From NCBI GenBank assembly GCA_030390025.1, contig CM059431.1, positions 153,576,001 through 153,640,000 on the forward strand: a DNA stretch of 64,000 bases, read 5' to 3'. Positions 37,176-58,809 of the stretch are shown here, one piece after another; position 1 is the first letter of the stretch; every line of letters begins with the position of its first letter. Origin of the DNA: Squalus acanthias. Taxonomy: Eukaryota. The notes beneath the pieces are model-generated. The model had not been told where the DNA came from and did no database searches. It was given only the letters and a program-made list of their open reading frames with translations. The position numbers were made by a program, and so were the translations under genes.

Positions 37176-38323
37176 AAAATACTCTCTCTTTAAATGGGGT
37201 CCCTGGCGGAGAGACTCTCTCAAAAAAGGGGTCCCTGAAGGGGATACACCATCTTTACAAGGCATCCCTGATGCTGAGTGTCCCTCTTTAAAAGGGGTCC
37301 CTGATAGTGAGACTCTCATTTAAAGGGGTCCCTGATGGCGAGATTCACTAATAAAAGGGGTCCCTGATGGTGAGACACCCACTTTAAAAGGGGTCCCTGA
37401 TGGTGTGACTCCCCTCTTTAAAATGGGTCCCTGATGTTGAGACAATCTCTAAAAACGCGTATCCCTGATGGTGAGACTCCCTCTTTAAATAGAGAGATAC
37501 ACACTTTAAAAGGGATCCTTGATGGTGCGTCTCATTCTTTAAACGTGATTCCTGATGTTAAGACTCTGTCTTAAAAGGGATCCTTGATAGTGAGACTCCC
37601 TCTTTAAAAGGTATCCCTGATGTTGAGACACACTCTTTAAAAGTGATCCCTGATGGTGAGACTCCCTCTTTAAAAGGGATCCCTGATATAAAGACTCTCT
37701 CTTTAAAAGGGGTCCGTGATGATGCGACTCTCTCAATAAAATGTTCCCTGAAGGGATACACTCTCTTTAAAAGGGATCCCTGATGGTGAGACACCCTCTT
37801 TAAAAGGCGTTCCTGATGGTGAGACACCCTCTTTAAAAGAGGTCCCTGATGGAGAGACTCGCTCTTTAAAGGGGAACCTGATGGGGAGACTCCCTCTTTA
37901 AAAGGGGTCACTGATGGCGAGATTCTCTCTTTAAAGGATGTCACTGATGATGAGGCACACTCTTTAAAATGGGTCCCTGGTACAGAGACTCTCTCATTAA
38001 AAGGGGTCACTGATGGAGAGAATCCCTCTTTCAAAGTGTCCCTGATTCTGAAACATCCTCTGTAAAAGGGGTCCCTGATAGAAAGACACCCACTTTCAAA
38101 GTGGTCCCTGATAGAAAGTCTCTCTCTTTTAAAGGGTTCCCTGAAAGAAAGACTCTCTTTAAAATATGTCCCCGAGGGTTAGATTCCCTCTTTAAAAGGG
38201 GTCCCTGATAGAAAGACTCTCCCTTAAAAAAGGGTTCCCTGATAGGGAAACTGCCTGTTTAAAATGGGGTCCCTAATGATGAGGCTCCCTCTTTAAAACT
38301 TGTCCCTGATGCTGAGACTCCCT

Positions 38324-39504
38324 TGTAGGCTTCGCAAAATCCCCCAGAAACTCGAACAGAGCCCTAAAGGGAGTGAGCTTTGGACATTTCATACAAACTT
38401 GGGATGATGGGGCCTAAGTGAAGTGATTTGATGTAAAAACCTAAAGATCAGGGAAGAAAAACCTGAGGAAACGGATTTTTTGGAATGTTACTGTTAAGAG
38501 AGACACCTTTCACAGACACAAGCTGCGAGGGGTGTGGCCGGGCAGTGAACAAATTCAGCTGTCTGGGAATTGTTTACATTACAAATCCTACCCAGGTGCA
38601 ACAGACAAAGCAAAAACTCAAAAACACATTCAAATATGGATCCCCAGGGGCAAACAAGATGCTGGAAATCTAAAAACGATTCAATGACAATATAACTTCG
38701 ATCACACAGTTTCATAGCCATTATCCCATCAAAAATATCAATCAACCAGGTATCCACAGAACAGATTTAACAGCCCGCCAACAGACCTAGGACAAAAAGG
38801 TGGAGATTTTGGTGCGTAGATAAGGCTGTGTTTAAATAGGAAAACGATCAAGTGTTGTTTAACACTGAGCAAAAACCATCGGAACTGGCAAGCCCGCCAA
38901 AAGCTAGAGAATTGGACTAAGCAAGGTTCATTTACAATCAAAAGGAATTCGTTTTAGTAAGGGTTTTTTGGGCGCGAAAAAGAAACAGTATAATTTGAAA
39001 GCCTGTGCCATAATCTCTCTCTCTTTTGGACAGGCTGACGACGCGGACACAGCTCTCTCCCTGCTCCAGCAAAACCTACCACAAGCCACGAGGAAGAAGG
39101 CCAGCACGCAAGAAGAAACCAGAGCGACTGCCTCAGTGACCGTCAGACACCTCGCAGCAACAAGGGCCTTCGGAGTCTTTTTAAACAAAAGACTCTAATA
39201 TCCTGTCAAGGATTCATTGGTGAGCATTATCCCTGATCTCCTGAAACCAAAAACCTAGCCAGATAGTGGGATCATTGGGAGCGATAAGGTTTTTTTTGAT
39301 ATATTGTCATTAAGCCTCGCTTGTAACGTGTGTTCCCCGAATGTGTGTTTAAGTAATAAGTGTGTTTCAAGTTTGTTACCTTTTTTTTAATAAAGTAAAA
39401 TTCTTTCATCAGAACCTGTTTACTGCAATTTTGTTCACAACCCCTAAATAAGTCCAAATTCCAGGAACCGGAGGAGTGTGGGAGCGATTAAGATACCCCT
39501 TAAA
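38324..39504 (+). mobile_element. Solo LTR copy 2
   Basis: TGTAGG...CCCTTAAA with CCCT TSD at the same satellite position as copy 1. Confidence 0.88.
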
Positions 39505-40724
39505 CCCTCTTTAAAAGGGGCCCCTGAAGGTGAAACTCCCTTTTTAAAAGGGACCCGTTATGGTGAGTCTCCCTCTTTAAAAGGGGCCCCTGATGGTGAG
39601 ACACCCTCTTTAAAAGGGTCCCTGATGGGGAGACACCCTCTTTGAAATGTTTTCTTGATGGAAACTATCCCTCTTTAAAGGGTCCCTGATGGAGACACTC
39701 CCTCGTTAAAAGAGTTTCCTGATGGAGGGACTCTCTTTAAAAGTTGTCCTTAAAAGGAAGATTCTCTTTAAAAGGGATCCTTGATAGAATGACTCCCTCT
39801 TTAAAAGTGTCGCTGATTGCGAGACTCCCTCTTTAAAAGGGATCCGTAATGGAGAGACATCTCTTTAAAAGTGGTCCCTGATGGCGAGACTCTCTTTAAA
39901 AGTGATCCCCGATGCTGAAACACACTCTTTAAAAGGGGATCCTGATGGTGAGACTCTCTCGTTAAAATGGATCCCTGATATATAGATGCCCTCTTTAAAA
40001 GGGGTCCCTGATCCATAAACTCTCTCTTTAAAACGCGTCCGTGATGTAGAGACACCCCCATTAAAAGGTGTACCTGATGCTGAGAATCTCTCTTTAAAAG
40101 GGGTTTCCTTAATGATGATATTCCCTCTTTAAAAGGGGTCCCTGATGGAGAGATTCTCTCTTTAAATGGGATCCCTGATGGTGAGTGTCTCTCTTTAAAA
40201 GGTGTCCCTGATGATGTGACATCCTATTTAAAAGCGGGCCCTGATGGTGAGACTCTCTCATTAAAATGGATCCCTGATGGAGAGATTATCTCTTTAAAAA
40301 CTGTCCCTGATGCTTAAACTCCCTCTTTAATAGTAGTCCCTGATGGCGAGACTCCCTCTTTAAAATTGTCCCTGATGGGGAGACACCCTAATTAAAAGGT
40401 GTCCCTGACGATGCGACTCTCACTTTAAAAGGTGTGCCTAATAGGAAGATTTTCTTTAAAGGGGCGCCTGATGGAAAGACTCTCTCTAAAATGGATCTCC
40501 GAGGGTGACTCCTTCTTTAAAAGCGCTCCCTGATAGAAAGACTTTCTCTTTAAAAGGGTCTCTGATGGTGAGACTCTCTCTTTACAAGAGATCCCTGATT
40601 GTGGGACTCACTCTTTAAAAGGGGTCCCTGGATTTGAGACGCTCTGCTTAAAAGGGATCTCTTTTAAAAGGGGTTACTGATGGTAAGACTCATTTTAAAA
40701 GAGCTCCCTGATGGAAAGACTCCT

Positions 40725-42660
40725 TGATAACTGCTGTGCTCTTACTGCACGCTTCTCTAAATTCCCTTTAAATGCCATCCCCAAAGTCTGTATTACTGTT
40801 TGGGGGTCTATACACCACTCCCACTAGCGTTTTCTGCCGCTTGGCATTTCTCAGTTCTACCCAGACAGATTCCACATCATCAGAGCTAATATCATTCCTT
40901 ACAATTATTTTAATCCCCTCTTTAACCAGAAATGCTTCCCCACCTCCTTTACCTTTTTGCCTATCTTTCCTGAATATTGAATACCCCTGTATGTTGAGTT
41001 CCCAGTCTTGGTCACCCTGGAGCCATGTTTCCGTCATCCCAATCATATCATATTCGTTTACCTTTAATTGCGCAGCTAATTCAGCCACCTTATTATGAAT
41101 GCTCCTCGCATTAAGACAAAAGGCCTTTAGGCTTGTTTTTTTAACGCTCTTCGACCTTTTAGAATTATTATTTACTGTAGCCCTGTTTGATTTAAACCCT
41201 TGATTTCTCTGACAGCCACCTTTGTTTTTTTCCTCCCTAACTTTTGCTTCTATCCTTGTTTCCCTTTACGCTGTCTCCTTGCTCAGGTTCCCAACCCACT
41301 GCCATTTTAACTCAAACACTCCCCCAGAGCACTAGGAAACACTCCCCCAAGCACTTCGGTACCGGTCCTGCCCAAACCGTCCGAAATGTACTGGTCCCAC
41401 CTCCCCCAGAACCGGTTTCAATTTCCCAGGAATTTTAAACCCTTCCCCTGGCACCATTCCTCTAACCACGTATTCATCTGAAATATTCGCCTATTTCTAC
41501 TCTGACTAGCACGTGGCACTGGTAGCAATCCTGAGTTTACTACTTCGGAGGTCCTATTTTTTAATTTAGCACCTAACTCCCTATAGTCAGCTTTTCGGAC
41601 CTCATCCGGTTTTTTATCCATATCGTTGGCTCCACGACAACAGGCTGTTCACCCTCAATTCCAAAATGTTCGACAGCCGCTCCGAGACATCCTTGACCCT
41701 TGCACCAGGAAGGCAACACGCCATCCTGGAGTCTCGTTTGCCGCTGCAGAAACGCCTATCTATTCCCCTTACATTAGAATCCCCTATCACTATAGCTCTA
41801 CCCATCTTTTTCCTCCCGTCTTGTGCAGCAGAACGAATCCTGGTGCCAGGAAGTTGGCTGCTGCTGCCTTCTCCTGATAAGCCATCCCCCTCAACAGTAT
41901 CGAAAGCGGTATATCTGTTTGAGAAGGGGAAGTCTACAGGGGACTCCTGCACTACCTGCCTGCGCCTACTACTCTGCCTGGTGTTCAACCATTCCCTTTC
42001 TACCTGTGCAAACTTTACCTGCGATGTGACCAACTGGTTAAACGTGCTATCCACGAGGTAATCAGAATCGCGAATGCTCCAGTATGCATTATTTCGCAGC
42101 TCCAGTGCCGCAATGCGGTCTGCCAGTAGCAGTAGCTGGATACACTTCCTGCACATATGGTCGTCAGGGACACAGGAAGTGTCCCCGATTTCCCACATAG
42201 TGCAGGAGGAGCATATCACGGCGCCGAGCTGTGTTGCCATGACTTAACCTTTAATTAATTGAACTTAAATTTAATCAAATCAATCCCATCAATTAAACTT
42301 TAATTAAATGATGTAGGGCCCTTGTTTACCAACTGTCCCCGCTACACCACAGAGACCCTCGAAACTATAAACCTCAAAATTTAAGTTTGGAAAAAGGAGA
42401 AAAAGAGAAATACTCACCAATCAATCACTTACCTGCTTTCTGGTGACATCACACTTTTATTATCTTTTACTTCTCTCTCTCCCGCTCTCGGAGCTCAGAT
42501 TGGTAAGCCTACCTGGTCGGTGCCACCTTATACTGCCGCCGCCTCTGTTGGCCTACCTGGTCGCTGCCGCCTTTTACTGCGGCCGCCTCGCCGCTGTCGC
42601 TCCACCCAGGTCCGCCGACTTTGAGTCAGCTAATGCCAAACTCGCAGTTTAACACTCTTT
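40725..42660 (-). mobile_element. CR1 5' part (5'UTR, ORF1, APE start)
   Basis: MATQLGAVICSSCTMWE...CRKCIQL...IVIGDSNVRGIDRRF; MTETWLQGDQ. Confidence 0.9.
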
Positions 42661-43504
42661 TCCGATCTGCACTCTCTTTTTAAAATGAGTCCCCGATGGT
42701 TAGATTCCCTCTTTAAAAGGGGTCCCTGATGGTGAGACTCCCTGTTTAAAAGGGGTCCCTGATGGTGAGACTCTGTCTTTAAAAGGGGTCCCTGATTGTG
42801 TGAGTCTCTCTTTAAAAGGGTTCCTCATGTTGAGATTCTCATTAAAAGGGGTCCCTGATAGAAATGCTCCCTCTTTAAAAGGGGTCCCTAATGGTTAGAG
42901 TCTCTCTTTAAAAGGAGACACTGATTGAAAGATTCTCTTTTTAAAATGTGTCCGCGATGGTTAGATTCCCTCTTTAAAAAGGGCCCCTGATAGAATGACT
43001 CCATCTTTAAAAGTGGTCCCTGATGGTGAGACTCTCTCTTTAACAGGGGGCCCTGATGGTGAGACTGCATCTTTAAAATGGGTCACTAATGGTGAGACTC
43101 CCTGTTTAAAAGGGGACCGTGATGGCGAGACTCTCTCTTTAAAAGGTGTCCCTGATGGCGAGACTCTCTCTTTAAAAGGGGCCCCTGATTGAACGACGCC
43201 CTCTTTAAAAGGGGTCCCTGATAGAAATGCTCCCTCTTTAAAAGGGATCCCTAATGGGGAGAGTCTCTCTATAAAAGAGGTCCGAAAGAAAATCTCCCTC
43301 TTTAAAAGGTGTTCCTGACGGTGAGACTTTCTCTTTAAAAGTGGTCCCTGATGCTGAAACATCATCTTTAAAAGGGGTCCCTGATGGTGAGACTCCTTCT
43401 TTAACAGGGTTCTCAAATGGGGAGACTCTCTCATTAAATGGGGTCCCAGATGGTAATACTCTCTTTTTAAAAGGGGTCCCTGATGGTGAGACTCCCTCGT
43501 TAAA

Positions 43505-46500
43505 GCAAGAGCGGTGAGGCGGCAGAGGCGGCGGACCTGCGAGGGAACAGAGGCACCGAGCGGCGATACTTAAGGTGTGCCCCGAGGCGGCTTACAAATC
43601 CAGGTTCCGGGAGAAGGAAGCAAAAAATATTCCTAGTGTGACGTCACCAAAAAGCAGGTAAGTGATTGGTTGGTGAGTGTTTTCTTTGTCAATTTTTCTA
43701 AACTTAAATTTGTGTTTTCTACAGTCTCTTTGTGTAGCGGGGACTCCTGTTAAGTTAGGGTCCTTGAGTATATACTTAATTCCAGTGTAATTGGTGGGAT
43801 CCATTTAATTTTAATTAATTAATTAATTAAAGGGTAAGTCATGGCAGGACAGCTCGGGGCTGTGACATGCTCTTCCTGCGCTATGTGAGAAATCAGGGAC
43901 ACTTCCTTTGTCCCTGACAACCATGTGTGCAGGAAGTGTATCCAGCTGCAGCTACTGCCAGACCGCATTGCGGTGCTGGAGTTGTGGATGGATGCATACT
44001 GGAGAATTCGCGATGCTGAGGACATCGTGGATAGCACGTTTAGGGAGTTAGTCACACCGCAGGTAAAGGGTGTACAGGCAGGAGGGAATGGGTGACCACC
44101 AGGCAGAGTAATAGGCTCAGGCAGGTAGTGCAGGGGTCCCCTGTGGCCATCCCCCTCTGAAACACATATACCGCTTTAGATATTGTTGAGGGAGATGGCT
44201 TATCAGGGGAAGACAGCAGCAGCCAACTTCCTAGCACCATCGGTGGTTCTGCTGCACAGGATGGGAGGAAAAAGAGTGGGAGAGCTATCGTGATAGGGGA
44301 TTCTATTGTAAGGGGAATAGATAGGCGTTTCTGCGGCAGCAAACGAGACTGCAGGATGGTATGTTGCCTCCCTGGTGCAAGGGTCAAGGATGTCTCAGAG
44401 CACCTACAGAGCATTTTGGAAGGGGATGGTGAACAGCCAGTTGTCGTGGTGCATATATGTACCAACGATATAGGTAAAAATCGGAATGAGGTTCTAAAAG
44501 CAGAATATAGGGAGTTAGGAAGTAAATTAAAGTATAGGACCTCAAAGGTGGTAATCTCAGGATTGCTACCAGTGCCACGTGCTAGTCAGAGTAGAAATAG
44601 AAGGATATTTCAAATGAATACGTGGCTAGAGGAATGGTGCAAGGGAGAGGGATTCAAATTCCTGGGGCATTGGAACCGGTTCTGGGGGAGGTGGGACCAG
44701 TACAAACCGGACGGTCTACACCTGGGCAGGGCCGGGACCGATGTCCTAGGGGGAGTGTTTGCTAGTGCGCTGGGGGAGGGATTAAACTAAAATGGCAGGG
44801 GGTTGGGAACCTGAGCAGGGACACAGAGGAAAGGGAAACATGGATAAAGGCAAAAGATAGGAAGGAGAAAAACAAAAGTTGCAGATAGACAAAACAACGG
44901 TTTAATCAAACATGGCCACAGTAAATACTAATTCTAATAGGTCTCAGAGCGTTAAAAAAAGAAGCCTGAAGGCTTTGTGTCTTAATGCGAGGAGCATTCG
45001 GAACAAGATGGATGAATTAGCTGCGCAAATAGAGGTAAACGAATATGATTTGATTGGGATTACCGAAACATGGCTCCAGGGTGGCCAAGGCTGGGAACTT
45101 AATATCCAGGGGTACTCAATATTCAGGAAAGATAGGCAAAAAGGAAAGGGAGGTGGGGTAGCATTGCTGGTTAAAAATGGGATTAACACAATTGAAAGGA
45201 AGGATATTAGCTCTGATGATGTGGAATCTGTATGGGTTGAACTGAGAAATAACAAGGGGCAGAAAACGTTAGTGGGAGTGGTATATAGACCTCCAAACAG
45301 TAATACGGAGTTTGGTGATGGCATTCAAAGGGAAATTAGAGAAGGGTGCAATAAGGGCACAGCAGTCATCATGGGTGACTTTAATCTACATATAGATTGG
45401 GCTAACCAAATTAGCAACAATACTATGGAGGAGGAATTCCTGGAGTGTTTACGGGATGGTTTCCTGGACCAATATGTCGAGCAACCAACCAGAGATCAGG
45501 TCATCTTAGACTGGGTATTATGCAATGAGAAAGGATTAATTAGCAATCTTGTTGTGCGAGGCCCCTTGGGGAGGAGCGATCATAAGATGATAGAATTCTT
45601 CATTAGGATGGAGAGTGAAGTAGTTAACTCAGAGAATAGGGTCATGACTTTAAATAAAGGAAACTACGATGGTATGAGGTGCGAGTTGGGTAGGATTGAT
45701 TGGGGAATGTCACTCAAAGTGTTGACGGTGGATAGGCAATGGCAAACATTCAAAGACCGCATGGACGAACTACAGAATTTGTTCATCCCAGTTTGGCATC
45801 AGAATAAAACAAAAAGGGTGATTCAACCATGGCTAACAAGGGAAATTAGGGATAGCATAAGATCCAAGGAGAGGGCATATAAATTGGCCAGAAAAAGCAG
45901 TAACCCTGTGGATTGGGAGCAGTTTAAGATTCAACAAAGGAGGACAAAGTGATTAATTAAGAAGGGGAAAATAGAATACGAGAGTAAGCTTTCAGGGAAC
46001 ATAAACACTGACTGTAAAAGCTTTTATAGATATGTGAAGAGAAAAAGATTAGTGTAATCAAGCATAGGTCCCTTGCAGTCAGAATCAGGGGTACTTATAA
46101 TGGGGAACAAAGAAATGTCAGACCAATTAAATACATATTTTGGTTCTGTCTTCACAAAGCAGGACACAAATAACCTCCCAGAGATGTTGGGGAACATAGG
46201 GTCTGATGAAAGGGAGGAACTGAAAGAAATCATTATTTGTAGGGAAATGGTGTTAGGGAAATTGAAGGGGTTGAAGGCCGATAAATCCCCAGGGCCTAAT
46301 AATCTACATCCTAGGGTACATAAGGAAGTGGCCCTAGAAATAGTAGATGCATTGCTGAACATCTTCCAACATTCGATGGAATCTGGATCAGTACCCATGG
46401 ATTGGAGGGTAGCTAATGTTACCCCAGTATTCAAAAAGCATGGTAGAGAGAAAACGGGGAATTACAGACCGGTAAGCCTGACATCAGTAGTGGGGAAAAT

Positions 46501-47866
46501 GCTAGAGTCCATTATAAAAGATGTAATAGCTGAGCACTTGAAAAACAGTGACAGGATCATACAAAGTCAACATGGATTTACAAAAGGTAAATCATGCTTG
46601 ACTAATCTACTGGAATTTTTCGAGGAAGTAACTGATAAAATAGATAAGGGAGAACCAGTGGATGTGGTGTATTTGGACTTCCAAAAGGCTTTTGATAAGG
46701 TCCCGCATAAGAGGTTAGCGTGTAAAATTAAGGCACATGGGATTGGGGGCAAGGTATTGACTTGGATAGAGAACTGGTCGGCAGACAGAAAGCAAAGAGT
46801 TGCAATAAATGGGTCTTCTTCCGAGTGGCAGGCAGTGACTAGTGGGGTACCGCAGGAATCGGTCCTTGGACCCCAGCTATTCACAATATATATTAATGAT
46901 CTCGACAAGGGAACTAGATGTAATATCTCCATGTTTGCAGACGACAGAAAACTAGGGGGGTGTGTGTGCTGCGAGGAGAATGCCGAGAAACTCCAGGATG
47001 ATTTGGACAGGTTGGGTGTTTGGGCAGAAGCGTGGCAGATGCAATATAACGTGGATAAATGCGAGGTTATCCACTTTGGTATCAAAAACAGAAAGGCAGA
47101 TTATTACCTGAATGGCAATAGATTGGGAGAAGGGGAAGTGCAACGAGACCTGGGTGTCCTTGTGCACCAGTAGCTGAGATAAGCATGCAGGTGCAGCAGG
47201 CGGTTAAGAAGGCAAATGGTATGTTGTCCTTAATAGCGAGAGGGTTTGAGTACAGGAACAAGGATGTCTTGCTGCAGTTGTACAGGGCCTTGGTGAGACC
47301 ACACCTTGAGTACTGTGTGCAGTTTTGGTCGCCTTATCTGAGGAAGGATGTTCTTGCCATGGAAGAAGTTCAGCGAAGATTCACAAGGCTGATACCTGGG
47401 ATGGCAGGAATGACGTATGAGGAGAGATTGGGTCGATTGGGCTTATACTCGCTGGAGTTTAGAATAATGAGAGGGGATCTCATTGAAACTTATAAAATTC
47501 TGACAGGACAGGACAAACTAGATGCAGGAAGGATGTGTCCGGGGAGTCCAGAACCAGTGGTCACAGACTAAGGATAAGGGGAAAGCCATTTAGGACAGAA
47601 ATGAGGAGGAATTTCTTCACCCGGAGAGTGGTGAACCTGTGGAATTCTCTGACACAGAAGGCAGTAGATGCCAATTCAGTAAATAGATTCAATAAGGAGT
47701 TGGATATATTTCTTAAGGCTAAAGGGATCAAGGGATATGGGGAGAAAGCAGGGACAGGGTACTGAATTTGGATGATCAGCCATGATCGCATTGAATGGCG
47801 GAGCAGGATAAAGGGGCCGAATGGTCTACTCCTGCTCCTATCTTCTATGATTCTATGATTCTATGA
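43505..47866 (+). mobile_element. Essentially full-length CR1 LINE (ORF1 43841-44790; ORF2 to 47765, with stops and frameshifts)
   Basis: GC-rich 5' end, ORF1 CxxC...CxxC plus SGNH esterase (GDSIVR, DGLHL), APE + RT, (ATTCTATG)n tail. Confidence 0.95.
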
Positions 47867-47899
47867 AGGTGTGGGCTGACCCCATTACCACCCCCTACA
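47867..47899 (+). repeat. Remnant 3' end of the 5' LTR
   Basis: GGGCTGACCCCATTACCACCCCCTACA matches the 3' LTR end GGGCTGACCCCATTACAACCCCCTACA (to 54545). Confidence 0.88.
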
Positions 47900-47901
47900 T
47901 A

Positions 47902-49719
47902 ATGGCGACCGCGGCAGGACTTTGGCGAAAGGGTTGTGAAGCAGTAAATGCTGGTTTTGAGGAGAGAACAAAAATGGAAGTGAGGATGTCATCCTATGTA
48001 TGTAAAAAAGTCAATATCACCAAGAAATGGGTCCTCAGTCTGTTGCATGCTGAACGTCCTATGGACGCTGCAGCTGCATGAACTGAGAGCAAGGAATACA
48101 ATAAGTCTGTGGAGACAGCCATATGGTTGGTCTGCTCCCAGAAGGAAATGCAGCTTATGGGGAAGCGCATTCAGGCTCTCACAGAAGAGCTAAAGGAAGA
48201 AAGCCAACTGTCCCGTGCCAGAGCTATAGCAGGGGACAGGTTGTTAGCAGAGCTGGACACAAAAGATCAGGAACAGTCACAGATGCTGGAGGAACACCGT
48301 GCCAGTAAGGGATACCTCCAGTGTCAGGCCACCGAGGCCAAAAGTAGTGAACTGGCATTGCGGGAAGAGAACACCCGCCTTGCCAAGCAATTAAGGGGAC
48401 TCACAGAGAAGTTAAACGATTTTCAGGCAGCTTACTGAGTAGCCAGTACAAGGGAGTTTGTGATAGGGGACCACGGCCCCTGTCAGAAGCAGATTGAGAG
48501 TCTGAACCTTGCTCTGTCCAAGACAAAAGGCCTGCTGTACCTGATAAGCCCGGGTGCGGCCCAGGTATACCTGGAGGAGCAAGGGGAGACTGTTCGACCA
48601 CCACCTGTGGCGCCAAGGAGAAGCTTGGTTAGGCAGCAGGAGGGGCAGACAATTTGTGAGGCTGACAGGGAGTGCACACCAGCACCTGTGGCGCCGACTT
48701 TTGTCTCGGTCTGGCAGCAGGGAGAGGGGGGCAAACCGATGCAGGAGAAGTCGGAGCCAGGGACAATGTGCCCAGCACGACAGCAAAAATTTGGCCCGCC
48801 CGCCGGTGGTGGAGGTCAGGGTCCCCTTGAAAATCAATTCTTGGCTCCCCACGGTACACAACAGCTTAGGGCTATGGTAAGCCACCTGAGTGAACATACA
48901 CAAAAGGAAGACCACTCAGTCCACTTCATGGAGGTGGTACAGGTGGCAGACATCAACGATTGTGATAATGCCGAGATGGCAAAAATGCTCCTGTTCTCAT
49001 TAGATGGCAAACGATACCAGTCCCTCTCGACTGAGAGCAAGAGAGGACAGAATGGGTATGCTGCCGTCAGAGAGGAGGTTTTAGAGGCCAGGGGAATGAA
49101 TGAGGGAAGTCCTTTCTCCCGGGTGGAGAATACAGTGCAGCTCGCAGTGGAGACCCCACAGGCTTTCGCAGACAGGCTGTGGCCGGTGTACAGGGGTGCT
49201 TGTAATGGGGCTCTCGACAGGGCTTACCTGAACGAGCTCGCCCACTGGCTCCGTAGCCTAGTCGCAAACAGCTTGCCACGAGTAAAAACCAAGCCTGAGC
49301 TTTGGTTTGACACAAGAGATCCCCGGGTCACCGAGGAGGCAGTGGTCAGGCAACTGACACTAGCCTACCGGAACGGTAGAGGAGCTGAAGACTCCCCACC
49401 GAAAGGGAAGGTGCATGAGATAAAGGCCAGTCAGGATAAGAAGGAGTGGCACCAGGAAGGTGGTAAACCTTCCGACACGAAGCGTAACTGCTTCAGGTGC
49501 GGGAAGAGTGGGCACTGGAGAAAGGACTATAGGAATCCCTGGAAGGATATGCTAACAAAGAATTCCACAGCTTTTGCCCCAACAGTCGAGGCACCGACCT
49601 CTTCCCGCACACTGCACACAATAGTAGCGGCCATCAGAGTCCTGTTTGGTGGCCCAGGGAAGGTAGCTACAGCCACTGGTGCATTAATCCCATCTGACCC
49701 CGCTAACGCACACCTATGA
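47902..49719 (+). pseudogene. gag: Gag (~605 codons, two in-frame TGA stops)
   Basis: ORFs 47863, 48109 and 48460 share one frame; coiled-coil N-terminus, capsid-like ETPQAFADRL, zinc knuckle CFRCGKSGHWRKDY (last Cys to Tyr). Confidence 0.85.
47903..47920 (+). promoter_or_regulatory. Primer binding site, tRNA-Arg(TCG)
   Basis: TGGCGACCGCGGCAGGAC is the reverse complement of GTCCTGCCGCGGTCG-CCA, recalled as the 3' end of vertebrate tRNA-Arg-TCG; 3 nt after the LTR CA. Confidence 0.85.
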
Positions 49720-50583
49720 CTAGAACCAGCGCAGCCTGTCCACCTGTGTTCCCCGGGATACGATGGTAAGAAGCGGGTGGAGAAGCTGCAGCGAGATGTT
49801 TGGTGGACACCAGAGCTGCCAGCACGGTGGTCCATTCAGAAGACCTGACCAATTCACCCAGGTCTAACGGGGTCCCATACAGTTTAATGGGATTCACAGG
49901 GAACGAGCAGGCTGGGGCAATGTCCAAACCTTTGGACATTGACTTAGGATCCCTCCATACCACGTGGGAGGGTAACACAAAGGCCGGCAAGTTGACCAAG
50001 CGGGCGACCAGGGAAGGAGAGTTCTGGTATCCCTTTCAAGCAGGTCCGGTAGCTGCAATCCGGGACAAGGGAGGCACACAGGGGGTAGCTTTTCCCCCGG
50101 ACTTAAAGCAGGTCCAAGCCCAGCATCCCGTCTTTAAGTCCGTCCTGGTAAAGAGAGAGAATGGGGAGTCCCTAGAAGGTCCGTTCAGGGCAGAGGACGA
50201 GATTTTTAAACAGGTTCACTGGCAAGCAGCCAGTAACCTGGGGAGCCAGCACGAGAAAGATCGGCTGCTGTTAGAACCCCAGAGAACCCACGGGCGGGAG
50301 ATTGACCAGTGAGGGTTTCACAGGAGAGATAGTACTGGGAGAAGGGAGAGAGATGGGTCCCCCGCCTGCAGCCTCAGGCTGGGAGGAGCCCACAGATATG
50401 AACGAGGGCGCTGCAGCCACACCGCAGGGGGTAGTGTGCTGCAGCACAGGACGCAGCTGGGATGTTAAGATACCCCCACCGGTTTTGAGGAAGGCCTTCT
50501 GGGTCCGGCGGTACAGGCCGCACTACACCCAGGTGTACAAGCCATCCAGAGGCCACATAAGGCAGAGACTAAACAGGATTTAA
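49720..50583 (+). pseudogene. pol: Internally deleted pol (protease N-half, RNase H tail, integrase C-terminal remnant)
   Basis: CLVDTRAASTVV (DTG to DTR); GNTKAGKLTKRA resembles RNase H GNxxADxLAK; DLKQVQAQHP; AASNLGSQH...EIDQ; no YxDD or DDE core. Confidence 0.7.
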
Positions 50584-50781
50584 CCTGGCCGTCCGGAGAC
50601 GGGCGGCAAATGTACAGAATTTTCGGTTTTAAGAAATTGCAGTTTTGGTAGTTATGGGTTATCATTAGTTTAGTTGTTTGTAGAGATTTAAGTTTAAGGG
50701 GTTGATTAATTATCCAGCCAGAGAACCTTTCTGGGACATGGATATATGTTTTGTGTGTGCCCCTACAGAAAGGACTTCGGA

Positions 50782-53127
50782 ATGACAGGGTTTCTGCTCC
50801 TGCTCGCCCTGGTAGGGGGGAGCATCAGTGAACGAGGTGACGTAGAGGACTCCCACATCTATGGGTGCTCAGGAGTGAAAGCACCAATCGTCACCGCAGG
50901 GGGTGACGAGCGGGGAGTGGAGGAGCTCGCCATCTACTTCCACGAGGGAAGGTGGCCAGGGTGGCTGGGGTCCAACTCTACAAAATACTCCAACCAGCCC
51001 GGGTTCACGTACGGAGAGGCCTCCCTCCCATGCTCCAGAATACAGGTCGTTGCCACAAGGGTCAGTGTCACCGAGGGGAAGCGTGTGTGCCTTACCTGTA
51101 AGGGACGAATTCCCCTGAATAGGTGGTGGTGGCTCAGGAAGCTGAGCAGGGACGCAGGGGACCATACAGCCGACTGTGAAAGATTAGGGAACGACACCCA
51201 CCGGACAATCACAGGGACCCAAGGAGGAGTGAGTGTTTGTTGGGATAAGTGGTGGGAGTCGGAATAGGGAGTCTATGTTTGTATGTGGGGATCAGAGGAA
51301 GCCTGCCCCACAGGGGTATCCATCATCTTCTCCAGCCAATGGCAAGATGCCGGGGAGGGGATAGGGTGGGATTCTAGCCTGCATCGGTGCGTGGTCCCAC
51401 ACATTCCGGTCCCAGTTAATGCCACTGAACTCGTGGCACACACCCGAAAGCTCCGACACACGACCCAGGTACCGAAAACCCTGGTAGAAAAGTGCCCTAC
51501 CACCACCAAGGGACCAGGGTTTGGGTTAGTCCTAGTACCAAACGAAAAGGTACTATACCATGGGGTACACTATGCAGTAGCTTCAGTAATATTGAACCTT
51601 AACGAGGTATACTTACCTGAGTGGTGTCCGAAGGAGACGGAGCAGCTGTACCAGGACCTGCTAAAGGAAATGTTTAGGACATTTTACGAATTTGATTTTG
51701 CCAATATAGACACAGTAGAGCTATACAGAATACACCCTGAAAACCCTATGGGCAGGGGTAGCCAAAGAAGGGGAGCCTGGAATGATGTTTTCACTGCCTA
51801 TAGTACAGGGTCCTCTGTAATAAATAGCCTGGATGACATGGAATTACAGACACAGATAAATGGTTTAAAAACCCAGTTAAGAAAGATCCTAAAGGATGGG
51901 AACACAGTGGTAGGCTCAGAGCTACATGAGGACCAAGCTATGACGGTTCATTTAAAGGAAATTATTGCAGAATTGGAAAGGCATGCCAAAACAGTAAATG
52001 CACTCATACGGGAGGATAGGAATGCATCGGATCAGGCTGCACTGAATGAGGTGTGTGTGCTGTACTGGGTATGGTTGCTGGGCGAGGGCCGTAGCAACCT
52101 GGAGGATTTAAAGCAAGGTTCAGTCCCCTCCTGGATCAGCAACAAGCACCTTGCAGCCCTCCACCCGTTTAGTAATTCGCTGAGCCTATGCCAATTTCGT
52201 CTAGCCTTTGAAGTCTAGCCTGTCCCAATAGATTGTGGGTGTTCCAATCACACTATCATGGGGATAGTAGTGAGAATGCCGGTCATGAGTGGGACAGCCC
52301 GACCCTTACCGGTATACAGGGTGGAGAACATTGGAGTAATTCAAGGGGTTGCACACATCCGTTTTACAGCGGTCCCACTTAAAGTCGGAGCACGCCATGA
52401 CAGGTACTGACCTCTCCGGGTGCCGGAGCCGGGGTTCACACATAATACTGTGTCCCCAGCACTTGAACGCCTATTCTAAACCACAGTGCGGGTTTAAAGC
52501 TGCTGGCGCACGACCTATAAACTGTACCATGGAGGTGATGGCACATGGCCATGTTTCCCCACAGGTAGCATATATAGGGGGTGGGACATATTGTGTCACC
52601 ACAGGTGCGTTCCACTACCAGCATGGACACTTCTGGTGTCCGGTAAGTGACAGCAGTTTCTGCTTTAAACCCGAGGCAGAAGTTCAAGTGGCCCAGGAAC
52701 GGATTGTCCCCATTCCTGAACCCTCCACTGTTCACCTCACTGTAACAGAAAACATCACCAACCTGAAAAAGTATGTGACTTACTTTGGATATAAAATTCC
52801 CCCTCTACCCGAACATCTTACCATCCTACTTAAAGCTGTAGTGATTTCACAAAAACATTTCTACACCCTGGAACAGAAAACAGTTGAAATAGAGGCAGTG
52901 ATTTTGGATATAGTAGTTCCATCCTGGTGGGATATTTTCGAGAATATAGAGGTGCCTTCTGGATCAGGATGGCTTCCCATCTTTTGGTGGTCTGCCAGCT
53001 CGGGATAGTTCTCTGCCTGCTGTGTACAAAGTGCAGGGGAAGGGACGGGGAGCTCCGTTCCAGACACAGAGGGACTTGGGAAGTGCATCAAAATAAAGGC
53101 TATGGCCGGGGATGGAACGAACCTTGA
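50782..53127 (+). pseudogene. env: Envelope glycoprotein: signal peptide, Ig-like domain, F-type class I fusion protein, TM
   Basis: MTGFLLLLALVGGSIS; TAG at 51265 and 52216 in one frame; frameshifts ~52380 and ~52955; SQRR/GAWNDVF cleavage and fusion peptide; heptads; Cys-rich region; TM ASHLLVVCQLGIVLCLL; acceptor CCCCTACAG ending 50768. Confidence 0.8.
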
Positions 53128-53396
53128 ATTTCGTCTTTTAATTCAAAAAATTGTATGTGTGTTGTGTCGTTTTTATGATGTGTATGATGTGTTTTCCAAG
53201 CTGTGCCGGGGTGTCGGATCCTCTCCGTGCTTGGATGTGAAATAAATTTGATTTTTACCTGTATGTACCTGAAACACCACTTTTAAAAGGGGAATGTATG
53301 TTTGGGTTTTTAGTTTAGGTAATACAGGGGAAGGTTGGTGTTCGGGGATCAGAAATTTTGCTCACCTGTTAATGATACTAATTCAGTTTTAGTATC

Positions 53397-53407
53397 AAAG
53401 TGGGGGA
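53397..53407 (+). promoter_or_regulatory. Polypurine tract
   Basis: AAAGTGGGGGA immediately before the LTR TG. Confidence 0.8.
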
Positions 53408-54545
53408 TGTAGGCTTCGCAAAATTCCCCAGAAACTCGAACAGAACCCTAAGTGAAGTGATTTGAGGTCAAACCCTCAGTTTCGGACATTTTTAAAGATC
53501 ACAAGAAGAAAACCCTGAGGAAAATGACTTTTCGAATCTTACTGTTGGGAAAGACACCTTCACAGAAACACAGGCTGCAGGGGAGTAGCCAGGCAGTGTA
53601 TTAAGCTGTCTAGCAGTGTGTTTACACTGCCTTCCTATCAAGGAGGAAAAGACAAAACCCAAAAGCCTCACAACACATCGAATATGAATAATCCAAGACC
53701 TCTTTTGAAATCAATAATACATTTAGTACTTCATCAAAAACCAATCAACCAGGTATCCACAGGACAGATTTAAAAGCCCGCCAATAGACCTAGGACAATA
53801 GGGTTGAGATTTGGCACGTAGATAAGGCTTTGTTAAATCGGAAAACGATCAGGACATGTTTAACACTGAGTTAAAGCCATCACAACTGGCAAGACCGCCA
53901 AAACTAGACAATGGACTAAACAAGACTCAATTGCAACCTAAAGGAAATCGTTTTAGTAAGGGGTTTTGGGCGCGAAAAATACAATATAATTGAAGCCTGT
54001 CTCAAGACTCTTTCTCTTTTGGACTCGCTGACAACGCTGGCACAGATCTCTCCCTGCTCCAGCAAAACAAGCCACGAGGAGTAAGGTCAACAAACAGACC
54101 ATCACACAAGAAGAAACAAGAGCGACTGCCTCAGTGACCATCGGACACCTCGCAGCAACAAGGGCGTTACGAAATCTTTTAATCAAAAGACTCTAAAATC
54201 CTGTCAAGGATTCTTTGGTGAGCATTATCCCTGATCTCCTGAAACCAAAAACCTAGCTAGATAGTGGGATCTTTGGGAGGGATAAGGTTTTTGTTTGTTA
54301 TATTGTCATTCTCCCTAGCCTGTACCTTGTGCTCCCCAATCTGTGTTTAAGTATTAAGTGTGTTTTAAGTTTGTTACCTTTTTTTCTTTTAATAAAGTCG
54401 AAATTCTTTCATAAGGACCTGTTGTCTACTGCATTTTTGTTCACAGCGCCTAAATAATCAAAGTCTAGGAAACAGGGGCGTGGGAGCGAGTCGAACCGCT
54501 CACTGAGTCAGAAGCCGAGGGCTGACCCCATTACAACCCCCTACA
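53408..54545 (+). repeat. 3' LTR (1138 bp)
   Basis: TGTAGG...CCTACA inverted termini, AATAAA at ~54391, homologous to the solo LTRs. Confidence 0.92.
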
Positions 54546-54860
54546 TAGTCTGCACTCTGTGTGACTCTGCAGTCTGTGTGACTTCAGGCTGCCGTCTGTG
54601 AATCTCTGTCTGCAGTCTTTCTTACTCTGTCTGCAGTCTGTGTGACTCTAACTGCCGCCTGTGTGACGTCATTCTGCAGTCTGTGTGGCATCAATCTGCT
54701 GTCTGTGCGACTCTGTCTGCAGTCTGTATGACGTCAGTCTGGGTGACGTCAGTCCGCTGTCTGTGTGAGGTCAGTCTGCAGTCATTGTTGACGTCAGTCT
54801 CTGTGACGTCAGTCTGCTGTCTGTGTGACGTCAGGCTGTGTGTGTGTCATTGAGCTTCAG
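54546..54860 (-). repeat. ~22-bp minisatellite, inverted copy
   Basis: TGTGTGACGTCAGTCTGCAGTC units. Confidence 0.85.
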
Positions 54861-55959
54861 TCAGCGTTAGTCTCTCTCCCTCTGTGTTTGAGGAACGTGT
54901 GTCTGCTGGATGTCTGCTGCGGTTGGCCATGTATCTCTGACGTGCTTTCGGCGATGTTAAGACGGATATGGGAATTGAGGGAACGCAGCAAAGGTTTATT
55001 TAGAAATAGAGGAGATGAGAATATCAGGGACACAGAGCAATTTTTAAATTAGAAATAGGGGAACTCAAGGTAACCCAACAACTATTTAATTAGAAACAGG
55101 AGGAAGAAACACAACCATATGGGATTGAATTTGACACGGTAATGCAATGGTTAACTTGTGTATGCCTTTGCGTTGTATTTTACCTGTTTATATTGGATGA
55201 TGTCATTGATTACAAGGCGCCTTCTCACGATTGTAGCTGGGTGCAGATACATCGCTGACTGACGGAATTAAAATCCCAACCTGCTGCCCGACTCTTGGCA
55301 TAAATAATGTTCGTCGTCTAAAACTACTTAAATGAGAATCAACCTACTTCTCAGACGAATCAGCAACTCATCACCACTTCCCCCAGAAGATGGATGCGAG
55401 CCGGATTGGCCGAGCCGGGGCTCCGGGGACGTGAAACCAAGTGGAGTTTGTTTTTTTGAGAACGTCAGCATAAAGTGGAACGTGAACGAGTGACAGGGAA
55501 AGGTCACTAAATCACGAATAATATATGAACCCCACGGACTATTAAACTACTCAGGCTGTTGTTAGAGTAAAGTTTTCAATAATGTTGTTGAAAATTGACG
55601 TGATGTGTCACAGATTTATTGAGCACACGGTATATGCAATAGTACTTAAACATATGGTTAAAAGGTGCAAATTGCAGTCGCACCTGATTATGGTTGCATG
55701 GCGATTGAAACGTCTTACTGTTCTCAGCTCAGTATCTTAAGCTTTTAACAATCAGAATACTCAGTACAAACAGCCAATTTGATTATAATTGTCTCACTCC
55801 CTCTCTGTGACCATCCACACAATGTTGCATCATCTAAATATATGATAGTTAAAATGTAACTCCATATATGGAGACTTTCATCGACTTATCCTTGATCAAT
55901 AAGGGTAGTTTTCCTTCCATAACGATCTCTTTGTCTGTTGGGCTCAGAAGCGAATTTCC

Positions 55960-56978
55960 CTCTTTCCACTCCCGCATCATTACCTCTGAGGACCACCAAG
56001 ATCAATCCTTTACCCCCTCCTATTTCTCCACTATATGCTGCCCCTTGGCGACACCATCCGAAAACACTGCGTCAGTTTCCACATGTACGCTGACGACACC
56101 CAGCTCTACCTCATCACCACTGCTCTCGAGCCCTCCATCCGTCTTTAAATTGTCAAACTGTTTGTCCGACATCAATTACTGGATGAGCAGAAATTTTCTC
56201 CAATTAAATATTGGGAAGACCGAAGCCATTATTTTCAGTCCCCTCCACAAACTCCGTTCCATAGTAACCGACTCCATCCCTCTCCGTAGCATATGTCTGA
56301 GGCTGGAGACTGTTCGCAAACTTAGTGCTATATTTGACCCTGAATGAGCTTGCAACCACATATCAGCGGCATAAAACCGCCTACTTCCATCTCCATAACA
56401 TTGCCCATCTCCGCTTCTGCCTCAGCTCGCTGCTGAAACCCTCATCCTCGGCTTAGTTACCTCTAGGCTTGACTATTGAAACGCACTCCTGCTGGCCTCC
56501 CACATTCTACCTTATGTAAACGTGAGGTCATCCAAAACATTGCTGCACGTGTCCTAACTCGCACCAAGTCCCGTTCACCCATCACCCCTGTGCTCGCTGA
56601 CCTATATTGGCTCCCGGTTAATCAAAGCCTTATTTCAAAATATTCATTCTTGTTTTCAAATCCCGCCGTGGCCTCGGCCCTCCCTATCTCTGTAATATCC
56701 TTCAGCCCACAACCCCCCAACATATCTGTCCTCCTCTAATTCTACCCGCTTCAGAATCCCTGATTATTATCTGTCTGTCCCTTCAGCTGCCCAGGCCCTA
56801 TGCTCTGGTTCTCGCTCCCTGAACCTCTCCGCATCTTTACCTCTCTTTCTTCCTTTATGATGCTCCTTGAGTCCTACCACTTGGACCAAGCTTAGGGTCA
56901 TCTGCCCTAAATTTTTCTTATGTGGCTCGGTGTCAAATGTTGGTCTGTGAAGCAGTTTGGGACCTTTTACTACAATAA
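55960..56978 (+). mobile_element. L2 LINE 3' fragment including the 3' end
   Basis: [37 protein letters not shown]...ITPVLADLYWLPV; TGTGAAGCA...GGGAC 3' end. Confidence 0.88.
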
Positions 56979-56980
56979 AT

Positions 56981-57824
56981 GGGGAGAAATTCGGTATCGC
57001 CTCTATTGGGGCGCAATTATCCGCCGGGTTCAAAGTTTAGCGCCTGGCGTTAATTATCGCCTCCAACTGCAGACATTGCTTCTATCGTTCCTGGAGTTGA
57101 TTGGACAGCTGAATCAAGCGCTACACACATCTCTTAAGGCGCTAACGCTGGGGAGCAAGGCACCACCTCAGAGCGCTGGCGAAGCTCATGTGATGTCAGT
57201 CAGCAATGGAAGACAGACACACTGGCGCCGGGCAGTTCGTAAAGGGCAAAGTTGATCTTGCTCTCCATCCACACCCTGCTCATTGCAGCCTTGAATGTCG
57301 CCCTGAAGAGACCTGTACATCAAATCTGCTGGAAAGAACAATGAGGATACACAGGGAAAGAGCTCTTAGTGCAGTCCACATAGTCTCTTCCAAATCGATG
57401 CAAGTTAGGTCAAATCAAAATCAGCCTGCAAACTGCTGCTCAGGACCCAAAACTCGTTCACACAGCGTTGAACTCTCCAGAAGTCTCTCCCTCTCTCTCA
57501 GAATGCGTGGTGCAAAAATGTCGCAGATAAAAAAAAGGAAGGAAGCGATCGCCTGTAAATAGCGCTCCCCAGTCCCTTCCAGACTGCACAACACTCCCCT
57601 CAACAAGTCGTTTCTAGCGGCAGGCGGTAAGGCAGGGGGCACCATTCAATCTCCGGTCCGGGGCACTACCGGGGCCTTGCACGATCGACTGACGTCACGA
57701 TCTGTGGGCGCAGGAGATCGTGGTGGTAGTGTTTAGCGCCGCAAAATGTCTGGTCAATTTCGCGAGCGGCGCAAATAAAGTGGCGCGCCCGGGCACTAGT
57801 TGTTTCGCACCCCATTTTGCGCCC
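56981..57824. mobile_element. GC-rich, probably truncated MITE-like element after AAT
   Basis: Begins AAT|GGGGAGAAATTCGG; CpG-rich GGCGC/GCGCC-repeated ends; absent from the left arm; right terminus not seen. Confidence 0.45.
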
Positions 57825-58809
57825 TCGACTTATCGTTGATCAATAAGGATAGTTTTCCTTACTAAACAATCACTTTTTCTGTTGGGCTTACAAGCGTAAT
57901 TCCATTCGAGTCATCATCTTATCAATAGTTTCACTCTTGATCCACAGCATTTCAATTCTACCAAGTGAAACCATTAATTATAAATCTACTTTTATTTCTG
58001 GATCATTTGTACCAATTAAAATGATGATGCATGCCCCGATGTTTCCGTTCTGGAACTAACTATCTTCCCATATTGTAGCAAATGATTAAAGTTCTCCAAA
58101 ATGTATGAATCAGTTTGCAATGACATGTGTTATATAAATCTTTTATTGCTTCCTCCTGAGACTGACCATTGCTGCAGGAACTGCCCTGGCACATCAGTCC
58201 ACTGTTACTTTAAGTAGACTTGTACATCCCTGCTTAACAGGCAAAGGCTAAATATTATACATTAACGCTATAGAAAGATAAACCAATATAGTATAACATT
58301 AGCAAACTTTAGGACAGTCTGATTAACTCTTTCCCTACAATAACTGTTGGCGTTCGATTGCTTAAGGCCAACACTAAAACTATATCTCATCAGCATCATA
58401 GATCTATCTCGATCTATTCTCTTCTGCAGATCTCTACCCATTTGCTTTACACATTACTTTATCAACAGCGACAATAACCATTTCCTGTAGTGCTGACTTC
58501 AGCGTGACTGACCATGTCTTAGACCCATTCTTCAGGGCATCTTCATCATGCACATCGCATGCTGGTATCGCATTCACGAGCAACACTTTATTTCAGCACA
58601 CACTGCGATAACCCAAGATCAGGCAGCTGGAGGCATCCGATACAAGCCATTCCTACCATTTCTGGCTATCTACACAAAGCTGGGAGAGGGGGTAGGGGTT
58701 CTGTCGATGTTTGATTAGAATCTCCCCCTGCATGGTTCCGATGTTTCTTGTAGTGGCCAAGCTATCAAGTACATTCCTGTAATTGCTCAGTACCAGAAAG
58801 GACAGAAAC

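Follow-up and report, generated by a model that had tools for sequence, protein, structure and literature searches.

The subject of this study is a 64,000-nucleotide stretch of the Squalus acanthias genome (GenBank assembly GCA_030390025.1, contig CM059431.1, positions 153,576,001 to 153,640,000 of the forward strand; hereafter the window), which holds a degraded copy of an endogenous retrovirus (ERV) whose envelope (env) gene, as read from uninterrupted copies elsewhere in the same genome, encodes an immunoglobulin (Ig)-superfamily head joined to a predicted fusogen of the paramyxovirus/pneumovirus fusion (F) protein type. Combining the list of open reading frames (ORFs) with an alignment to an uninterrupted copy (95.6% identity over 2353 aligned bases), we find one env gene of ~784 codons at 50782-53127 on the plus strand, split into five pieces. 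The gene reads in frame 1 from the ATG at 50782 to 51264, meets a TAG at 51265-51267, continues over 51268-52215 to a second TAG at 52216-52218 and runs onward to ~52376; past this point it lies in frame 2 to ~52953 (ORF 52340-53008) and then again in frame 1 (ORF 52888-53127), ending at the stop codon 53125-53127. Relative to the uninterrupted copy, the window env is short of 1 + 7 nt at 52376-52381 and of 1 nt after 52953. The gene and its parts are as follows:

50782..53127, + strand: env, ~784 codons, inactivated by two in-frame TAGs and two frameshifts
50782..50829, + strand: signal peptide, residues 1-16, a hydrophobic N terminus (MTGFLLLLALVGGSIS) called by inspection
51034..51306, + strand: Ig-superfamily (V/I-set-like) domain, residues ~85-175, with Cys106, the W115-117 cluster, ExGxYxC and Cys167 (from profile, Pfam, model and VIA-align)
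51265..51267, + strand: in-frame TAG, codon 162, within the Ig domain; a sense codon in uninterrupted copies
51493..51771, + strand: F2-like segment, residues 238-330, from the CP..GPGNGLVLV motif (kept in an alignment of 45 sequences) to the basic site
51760..51771, + strand: basic site SQRR; in the uninterrupted copy RQRR, furin-type, at residues 327-330
51772..52116, + strand: fusion-peptide region and heptad repeat A, residues 331-~445 (model helices 334-374 and 384-444)
52210..52723, + strand: beta-rich F domains I and II, residues ~477-650, with VYRVENIG and GGGTYCV (model confidence 82-95; aligns with human parainfluenza virus 3 [hPIV3] F)
52216..52218, + strand: in-frame TAG, codon 479, from the alignment to the uninterrupted copy
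52376..52381, + strand: first frameshift, 1 + 7 nt missing relative to the uninterrupted copy
52811..52915, + strand: heptad repeat B, residues ~680-714 (model helix 680-714)
52953..52954, + strand: second frameshift, 1 nt missing relative to the uninterrupted copy
52963..53037, + strand: transmembrane anchor, residues ~731-755 (best hydrophobic window 733-751), followed by a ~29-residue tail to the stop codon at 53125-53127

Because both stop positions are sense codons in the uninterrupted copies, the TAG at 51265 is damage and not the end of the gene, a possibility that the initial annotation, made from the letters of the window alone, had left standing when it joined the ORF pieces into one gene across two TAGs and two frameshifts; that joining is borne out by the uninterrupted 784-codon copies and their 95.6% identity to the window. 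The codons at 51097 and 51280 (codons 106 and 167, 61 codons apart) are both TGT, as had been read, and the other segments listed at the time (the F2-like part, basic site, heptads, named motifs, transmembrane segment and tail) are all present in the translation. A single R.[KR]R site (RQRR, residues 327-330) occurs in the uninterrupted protein, which has a hydrophobic span at 731-755 and, again as claimed, no CX6CC motif. When a 222-residue C-terminal piece of env was searched against the animal's own 3.7-Gb genome, there were 8709 first-look candidates, and all 150 that were scored match at E ≤ 1.3e-117 with 86-100% identity; stop-free frames of 799-832 codons surround the match in 10 of these 150, and in two copies (L011 and L012) a single 784-codon frame runs from the Met and signal peptide through the tail. 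The env pieces in the window are not a chance reading, and the family to which they belong is a very abundant ERV of a cartilaginous fish.

Residues ~85-175 carry the B-strand Cys (in CLTC), a WWW cluster at 115-117 and the string E-x-G-V-Y-V-C, i.e., the Cys-Trp-Cys and ExGxYxC marks of the Ig superfamily (IgSF). We built a profile from 13 sequences of the head region (the window lineage and Chiloscyllium-type lineages of the same genome) and compared it with the sequences in the PDB: all 8 matches at E < 1e-3 are IgSF domains, namely DIP-alpha (2.2e-6), DIP-eta (4.9e-6) and neurotrimin (1.9e-5), with JAM, OPCML and CRTAM also present (to 4.2e-4), and IgSF or antibody chains make up nearly all 60 rows among the matches listed. 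In Pfam, Ig_3 is reached at E 0.17 with the window protein, 0.019 with the whole uninterrupted protein and 0.0015 with the domain fragment, and 8 of the 13 aligned sequences match it at E ≤ 1 (best E 6.8e-4). Folded alone, residues 70-210 give a model with eight strands (predicted local distance difference test [pLDDT] 65, predicted template-modeling score [pTM] 0.65), for which ~44 of 49 rows among the Foldseek matches listed are antibody variable or IgSF domains by title (E 0.017-0.067, probability 0.7-1.0). A VIA-align comparison with 48,161 chains aligns domains of Tyro3, the T cell receptor, CD8, titin, NCAM2 and Dscam at Z 5.5-6.1, with a root-mean-square deviation (rmsd) of 2.1-2.9 Å over 73-85 residues, and the ten best family-bearing neighbors in the ESM Atlas all belong to Ig families (scores 0.92-0.95). 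With the canonical marks in place and a significant profile match (E 2.2e-6), the V/I-set head proposed in the initial annotation is established as an IgSF domain by sequence profile and is consistent with one by fold.

Some of the data weigh against this assignment. The Ig_3 score of the domain fragment (19.5 bits) remains under the 30-bit gathering cut-off; Foldseek returned nothing for the head model at E ≤ 1e-3 (best E 0.017); VIA-align gave a best Z of 6.9 and no Z ≥ 8, a range in which a match may reflect merely a common arrangement, and its top rows are Ig-like domains of bacterial adhesins (Z 6.2-6.9, rmsd ~4 Å), which are not IgSF; and residues 17-84 and 176-237 have no confident fold. 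The receptor-binding domain (RBD) of gamma-type Env has an Ig-like beta-sandwich core without the canonical IgSF sequence marks. The middling fold matches (Z ≤ 6.9, Foldseek E ≥ 0.017) and the sub-threshold Pfam score would fit a viral beta-sandwich that resembles the IgSF, for example a relative of that RBD or a duplicate of F domain II, which itself has an Ig-superfamily fold (PMC11468914). What makes this origin quite improbable is that the significant profile matches (8 at E < 1e-3) are exclusively to cellular IgSF domains and that the head shows B-strand Cys, C-strand Trp and ExGxYxC in canonical form; in addition, neither a retroviral RBD nor F domain II appears among the Foldseek, VIA-align and profile matches listed, which does not exclude one.

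Since the head is a canonical IgSF domain whose nearest matches are cellular adhesion molecules, its capture from a host, as suggested in the initial annotation, is plausible. DIP-alpha, neurotrimin, OPCML, JAM and CRTAM, its best profile matches, have the same Cys-Trp-Cys and ExGxYxC pattern; unlike the head, these are host cell-surface proteins and not parts of a fusogen, and identity to them is low. The head is ancient and common to diverged lineages (see below), and no single donor gene stands out.

To characterize the remainder of the protein, we folded an uninterrupted copy with AlphaFold2 on the alignment of 45 natural sequences (28 database relatives at E ≤ 1e-3 plus diverged lineages of the animal's own genome); single-sequence searches with the broken window protein had returned nothing useful from the PDB and, from Pfam, only Ig_3 at E 0.17. 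The full-protein model has a mean pLDDT of 60 and a pTM of 0.46, with pLDDT values of 85-93 at residues 240-310 and 82-95 at ~520-650; its helices span residues 334-374, 384-444 and 680-714, and a membrane helix spans 729-764. A Foldseek search of the PDB with this model yields 218 matches at E ≤ 1e-3, the best being hPIV3 F (1ztm_B, E 2.6e-10, probability 1.00), and every row among the matches listed is a paramyxovirus or pneumovirus F protein in its pre- or post-fusion form. Against BFVD there are 60 matches at E ≤ 1e-3, to glycoproteins of lispiviruses and arliviruses (mononegaviruses), baculovirus F, paramyxovirus F and walleye epsilonretrovirus Env. The three-domain F fold is thus recovered by Foldseek in domains that are modeled with good pLDDT, and the signal peptide, basic site (SQRR in the window), heptad repeats A and B and C-terminal anchor of F-type class I fusogens are all in place. 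Together, these results support the prediction that the C-terminal ~550 residues form a class I fusogen of the paramyxovirus/pneumovirus F type, as the initial annotation had proposed from motifs.

It should be noted that sequence-based searches do not reach significance for this part and that, with certain properties of the model, they speak against an F-type assignment. The profile of the 45-sequence alignment finds F proteins among PDB sequences only at E 0.087-0.54 (5 of 10 rows), the domain I/II region aligning with hPIV3 F at the non-significant E of 0.087. Pfam PF00523 (Fusion_gly) does not match the window lineage, and in two related lineages it scores 12.8 and 11.6 bits, under its cut-off of 29.8; a PF00523 search of the animal's own genome gave 0 matches, and this search is uninformative because the control genomes gave none either. 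Template-modeling (TM) scores to F structures are low (0.26-0.30 when normalized to the query, 0.44-0.51 to the target), what was modeled is a monomer of post-fusion-like shape in which 321 of 784 residues have pLDDT values below 50, and the segment that follows RQRR falls short of the hydrophobicity typical of F fusion peptides. The low TM-scores fit what may be expected of a monomeric, post-fusion-like model with so many residues of low pLDDT.

The head is not confined to the window lineage. Named database relatives of the env protein come from skate, sawshark, catsharks, bamboo sharks, houndshark, bullhead shark and a frog, Pelodytes ibericus. Columns G30, C37 and G94 of the 13-sequence head alignment are invariant, and W85 and C98 are nearly so, among lineages that have just ~23-25% identity in their F parts (the window lineage and those of the Chiloscyllium type); an hhalign comparison between the profiles of these two groups gives E 1.3e-4 over 72 columns, with a probability of only 54%. 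By eye, the frog and Chiloscyllium proteins have the same Ig marks, and the Chiloscyllium protein carries the automatic UniRef name 'Ig-like domain-containing protein'. Pfam Ig families do not match the frog protein (P0031), P0024, P0013 or the Chiloscyllium protein, and the putative Ig region of the frog protein scores 0.82-0.84 in the ESM Atlas, under 0.9 and hence a lead only. A word-indexed search with a 12-sequence alignment retrieved nothing beyond close shark relatives. Judged from these alignments, diverged shark lineages have kept the Ig head, and the frog protein probably has it as well, which points to an old head and not to a recent capture.

Other F-type env lineages of the same genome and of other sharks (L019-L024, L026 and L028-L032; P0013 and P0020) have different N-terminal regions, which are Cys-rich, devoid of Ig marks or short, with 63-275 residues before the CP..GP..GLV motif. 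Different heads on one scaffold suggest that heads have been swapped.

Constraint on the head was gauged from the ratio of nonsynonymous to synonymous differences (pN/pS), pooled over 21 pairs of 7 uninterrupted copies (two further copies, L055 and L058, were left out by a motif filter). The ratio is 0.40 for the whole env, 0.32 for the Ig domain, 0.44 for the F2-like part and 0.36 for the F1 ectodomain, which indicates purifying selection on the head; what weighs against this estimate is that the copies were picked for their open frames and that the pairs are not independent.

The env of the working copies is, in all likelihood, a 784-residue type I protein made of an Ig head and an F-type fusogen, with receptor binding by the head as the predicted function. 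Its parts would follow one another in the order signal peptide, an N-terminal region of ~220 residues with an IgSF core, the F2-like segment and the RQRR site, and then the fusion-peptide region, heptad repeat A, beta-domains I and II, heptad repeat B, the membrane anchor and a short tail. In the proposed mechanism, the protein would trimerize, and cleavage at RQRR would produce a surface subunit (the Ig head plus F2) and a transmembrane subunit; binding of the Ig head to a cell-surface receptor would then release heptad repeat A so that it extends and inserts the fusion peptide, after which heptad repeat B would fold back and the membranes would merge. The two folds in a single ORF, the conservation of the head across lineages and the purifying selection on it emerge directly from the data presented here, and for the head itself the role of receptor-binding module is the most likely one.

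A head of the same architecture might instead act as an antibody shield, as an immune decoy or modulator (the decoy had been named beside receptor binding in the initial annotation), or as a clamp on the prefusion trimer. In favor of such roles, the constraint on the head resembles that on the rest of env (pN/pS 0.32 versus 0.36-0.44), with no sign of the raised rate often seen at receptor-binding surfaces engaged in an arms race. Yet gag, pro-pol and env fill the element, which encodes no other attachment protein; the F scaffold is known to take receptor-binding modules at its N terminus or as insertions (PMC11468914); and the different heads on the same scaffold in other lineages of this genome are what one expects of a swappable binding module. 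On balance, we regard a head that does not bind a receptor as unlikely, and return to the receptor-binding module in comparing the shark protein with known envelope systems.

Among the closest described counterparts in overall design is the Env of lokiretroviruses, which is related to paramyxovirus/pneumovirus F and reaches PF00523 at E 2.2e-7 (Wang and Han, 2020, PMC7947760), so that the kinship of lokiretrovirus Env with Mononegavirales F proteins, quoted as established in the initial annotation, is indeed stated in the literature. Signal peptide, basic cleavage site, fusion peptide, coiled coils and membrane anchor are present in it (PMC7947760) as in the shark Env, and the motif at the start of F2 is common to both by eye (PGPxxG(I/V)(V/M)L in lokiretrovirus Env, GPGNGLVL at residue ~244 in the shark Env). 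The two differ in that lokiretrovirus Env reaches PF00523, whereas the shark Env does not, and in what precedes F2. In all seven lokiretrovirus sequences compared, of the 23 in the supplement (Loki-Bsp, Loki-Aro and Loki-Oja as protein; Loki-Pma, Loki-Rca, Loki-Xla and Loki-Xtr as by-eye translations of the first codons), the signal peptide leads directly into the F2 motif without a ~220-residue head, whereas the shark Env has ~220 residues, including the Ig domain, between its signal peptide and its F2 part. Because of this direct junction, the Ig head is an addition relative to those lokiretrovirus envelopes. The word 'immunoglobulin' does not occur in the available main text of PMC7947760.

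Paramyxovirus and pneumovirus F proteins (hPIV3 F, 1ztm; respiratory syncytial virus F, 3rki) and the shark Env have in common F2-like strands, heptad repeats A and B and domains I and II, in the same order and with a furin-type site before the fusion-peptide region (Foldseek E 2.6e-10 to 1e-6 over ~500 columns). Identity is 9-14%, the viral F proteins have no N-terminal Ig domain, and the shark Env, unlike them, is encoded by a retroelement. F relies on a separate attachment protein, and it has been described as a minimal scaffold that takes receptor-binding modules either N-terminally, as in the coronavirus spike, or as an insertion (PMC11468914); the shark Env, as modeled, fits the N-terminal-module pattern. 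In foamy virus Env gp130, an RBD is inserted into an F-type core (Fernandez et al., 2024, PMC11468914); like the shark Env, it is a retroviral Env whose F-type core comes with a receptor-binding module of its own, a predicted one in the shark. The foamy RBD lies between N-SU and C-SU and is not described as Ig, whereas the shark module is N-terminal and precedes the F2-like part; foamy Env also has a leader peptide with a first membrane span, whereas the shark Env has an ordinary signal peptide and a single span near its C terminus. No foamy Env was found in the sequence searches or among the Foldseek PDB and BFVD matches listed. If true, a canonical Ig domain of cellular type at the N terminus of a retroviral F-type Env would add a third and simple solution to attachment, beside the foamy insertion and the N-terminal domains of coronaviruses, and would be a clear case of the modular assembly of a viral entry protein.

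The matches to walleye epsilonretrovirus Env bear on the origin of retroviral envelopes. The BFVD models of two such proteins (Q9WHI8 and A4GTG3) align with the shark model at E 8.8e-12 and 5e-10 over ~870 alignment columns; the hosts of the viruses concerned, walleye epidermal hyperplasia virus 1 and walleye dermal sarcoma virus, are fishes, as for the shark family, whereas the walleye proteins are much longer (1159-1317 residues) and have no detected sequence similarity to the shark Env. These model-to-model matches raise the possibility that epsilonretroviral Env may be F-type too. The papers returned by a literature search contain no statement to this effect; epsilonretrovirus Env has been placed outside the beta/gamma classification, and modeling of its SU failed (10.1101/2021.11.05.467493). 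Were the walleye Env F-type, F-type Env would span foamy viruses, lokiretroviruses, epsilonretroviruses and the present clade, and could be the ancestral retroviral envelope.

The layout of Ig head plus F-type fusogen is not found in the described retroviral envelopes of F type. Nowhere in the literature searched is an F-type retroviral Env described as carrying an Ig domain, a result on which bioRxiv supplements could still bear, and the arrangement is not described in the available portions of PMC9040795, 10.1101/2023.10.26.564294, PMC13709493, PMC11521997, PMC11089739, PMC4977317, 10.1101/2021.11.05.467493 or 10.64898/2026.05.06.723177. With no report found and 7 of 7 lokiretrovirus envelopes lacking the head, the architecture is not known to us as described, as had been the impression in the initial annotation.

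The env gene lies within a provirus that also retains gag and a remnant of pro-pol, between the last nucleotides of one long terminal repeat (LTR) and a probable second one:

47874..47898, + strand: end of the 5' LTR, its last ~25-27 nt; an identical LTR end (GGGCTGACCCCATTAC.ACCCCCTACA) lies at 54519-54545, and homology to another copy begins at 47874
47902..49719, + strand: gag in several frame pieces (ORFs 47851-48081, 48082-48438 and 48439-49719), with an N-terminal coiled coil, a capsid-like part and one CCHC knuckle
49770..50312, + strand: pro-pol remnant of 180 codons, in which the protease N terminus runs into the ends of RNase H and integrase, by comparison with the full-length copy L009
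53163..54545, + strand: probable 3' LTR, start approximate, ending in ...CTACA at 54545; the internal homology of the other copy stops at 53162

The homology of the window to the other copy extends over 47874-50311 and 50307-53162. gag is 93% identical to another copy, and its CCHC knuckle matches zf-CCHC at E 6.7e-4. Positions 54124-54525 match the end of the other copy's 5' LTR at 87.5%, and, judging by such alignments, 53163-54545 is probably the 3' LTR. A CR1-like long interspersed nuclear element (LINE) at 44161-47867 on the plus strand, with endonuclease and reverse transcriptase (RT) ORFs at 44906-47765, ends in (ATTCTATG)n at ~47867, i.e., ~27 nt before the end of the 5' LTR, so that almost the whole 5' LTR is missing; no direct-repeat pair of LTRs was found within 40000-58000 of the window. 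A TGG... string resembling a primer-binding site occupies 47902-47919; it starts 3 nt beyond the end of the LTR and shares letters with the first ATG of the gag frame.

In the pro-pol remnant, the protease active site reads DTR, and deletions have removed RT, the integrase core and most of RNase H. The deletion junctions lie near 49968 and 50208, and all 40 scored genome matches (from 857 candidates) span both of them with 93-100% identity. In the full-length relatives L009 and L012, the stretch from protease to env encodes RVT_1, an RNase-H-like tether, RNase_H (PF00075), Integrase_H2C2 and rve. What the window holds is a gag-env derivative from which pol has been deleted, and this form occurs in many copies, some of which, e.g., L011, keep an uninterrupted env. 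This suggests a non-autonomous element that relies on pol from full-length relatives. With two stops and two frameshifts in env, an altered cleavage site and an altered protease active site, and without RT, the integrase core and the 5' LTR, the window copy is dead.

The structure of the element also bears on whether the F-like gene might be an endogenized F gene of a negative-strand RNA virus that came to lie beside retroviral debris by chance. Paramyxovirus-like endogenous elements have indeed been reported in sharks, ray-finned fish and amphibians (PMC11089739), yet the present gene always stands after pol or a pol remnant and before an LTR (in the window, L009/L010, L011 and L012), env occurs in thousands of candidates and the gag-env form has both junctions in 40 of 40 scored matches; we therefore give chance juxtaposition practically no weight and treat the gene as the env of this retrovirus.

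The family may belong to the lokiretroviruses, to an epsilon-like group or to a new retroviral lineage. A lokiretrovirus screen found none in six chondrichthyan genomes (one from Carcharhiniformes, three from Orectolobiformes, one from Rajiformes and one from Chimaeriformes; PMC7947760), whereas relatives of the shark env are present in three of the species so screened; F-type retroviral envelopes are thereby extended to cartilaginous fishes. Of lokiretrovirus traits, the family has an F-related Env, and its signal peptide is not directly followed by F2. An N-terminal Gag coiled coil like that in the window has also been reported for the zebrafish lokiretrovirus BHIKHARI (10.1101/2024.03.25.586437). 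Against PDB sequences, the RT scores 193.6 bits with murine leukemia virus (MLV)-type RT, 187.5 with foamy virus, 139.3 with Ty3 and 66 with human immunodeficiency virus 2; the integrase is closest to that of prototype foamy virus (123 bits), no full MLV-type integrase being among the matches. Outside sharks, the Pol proteins nearest to those of the family are ERV-like proteins of birds and frogs (28-35% identity), and a Pol-only search of viral contigs found no relative. The full-length copies L009 and L012 carry RT_RNaseH or RT_RNaseH_2 followed by PF00075 RNase_H; this dual RNase H arrangement is a trait of lokiretroviruses that also occurs in canonical retroviruses. In the full-length copy L009, gag and pro-pol lie in one frame across one TGA, and gag and pro-pol in one frame with a single stop is the gamma/epsilon arrangement. 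The TGA, at 3570-3572 of this one copy, suggests stop-codon readthrough.

Tentatively, and with considerable doubt, the family may represent an undescribed retrovirus clade in sharks, skates and at least one frog, in which an F-type fusogen captured a cellular, adhesion-type IgSF domain as its receptor-binding head long ago, heads have been swapped between lineages and replication perhaps still continues, and whose type of Env, were the walleye Env F-type too, could be ancestral. The suggestion that the family may still be replicating, helped by its gag-env parasite form, stems from its being young enough to have uninterrupted gag, pol and env frames under purifying selection. The many uninterrupted copies make the receptor-binding hypothesis directly testable.

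Contigs from four sequencing runs match the family at 90-99% identity; they cannot show transcription, and all eight runs available for the purpose are only guessed to be RNA. At position 50934, contigs of all four runs (two organisms, two studies) break, with the same unrelated ~30 letters upstream, which could reflect a subfamily variant or a splice. Three sawshark gene models, P0007, P0008 and P0032 (ZFP2-like, Niban 1-like and cadherin-related 5-like), hold 20-32% of env at 60-69% identity and are either annotation chimeras or exonized env fragments.

Upstream of the provirus, a 1.6-kb block occurs twice (32661-34241 and 38006-39600; 92% identical, 5.3 kb apart), with LTR-like sequence amid 33-bp tandem repeats and LINE fragments. 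Its LTR-like pieces, at 32981-34131 and 38324-39489, were considered as the 5' LTR and rejected, being only 76% like the 3' LTR and part of a 5.3-kb duplicated block. Arrays of the 33-bp tandem repeat also lie at 40021-40692 and 42640-43500 (32 copies) and read on the minus strand as long repeat ORFs of the GTPFKE type.

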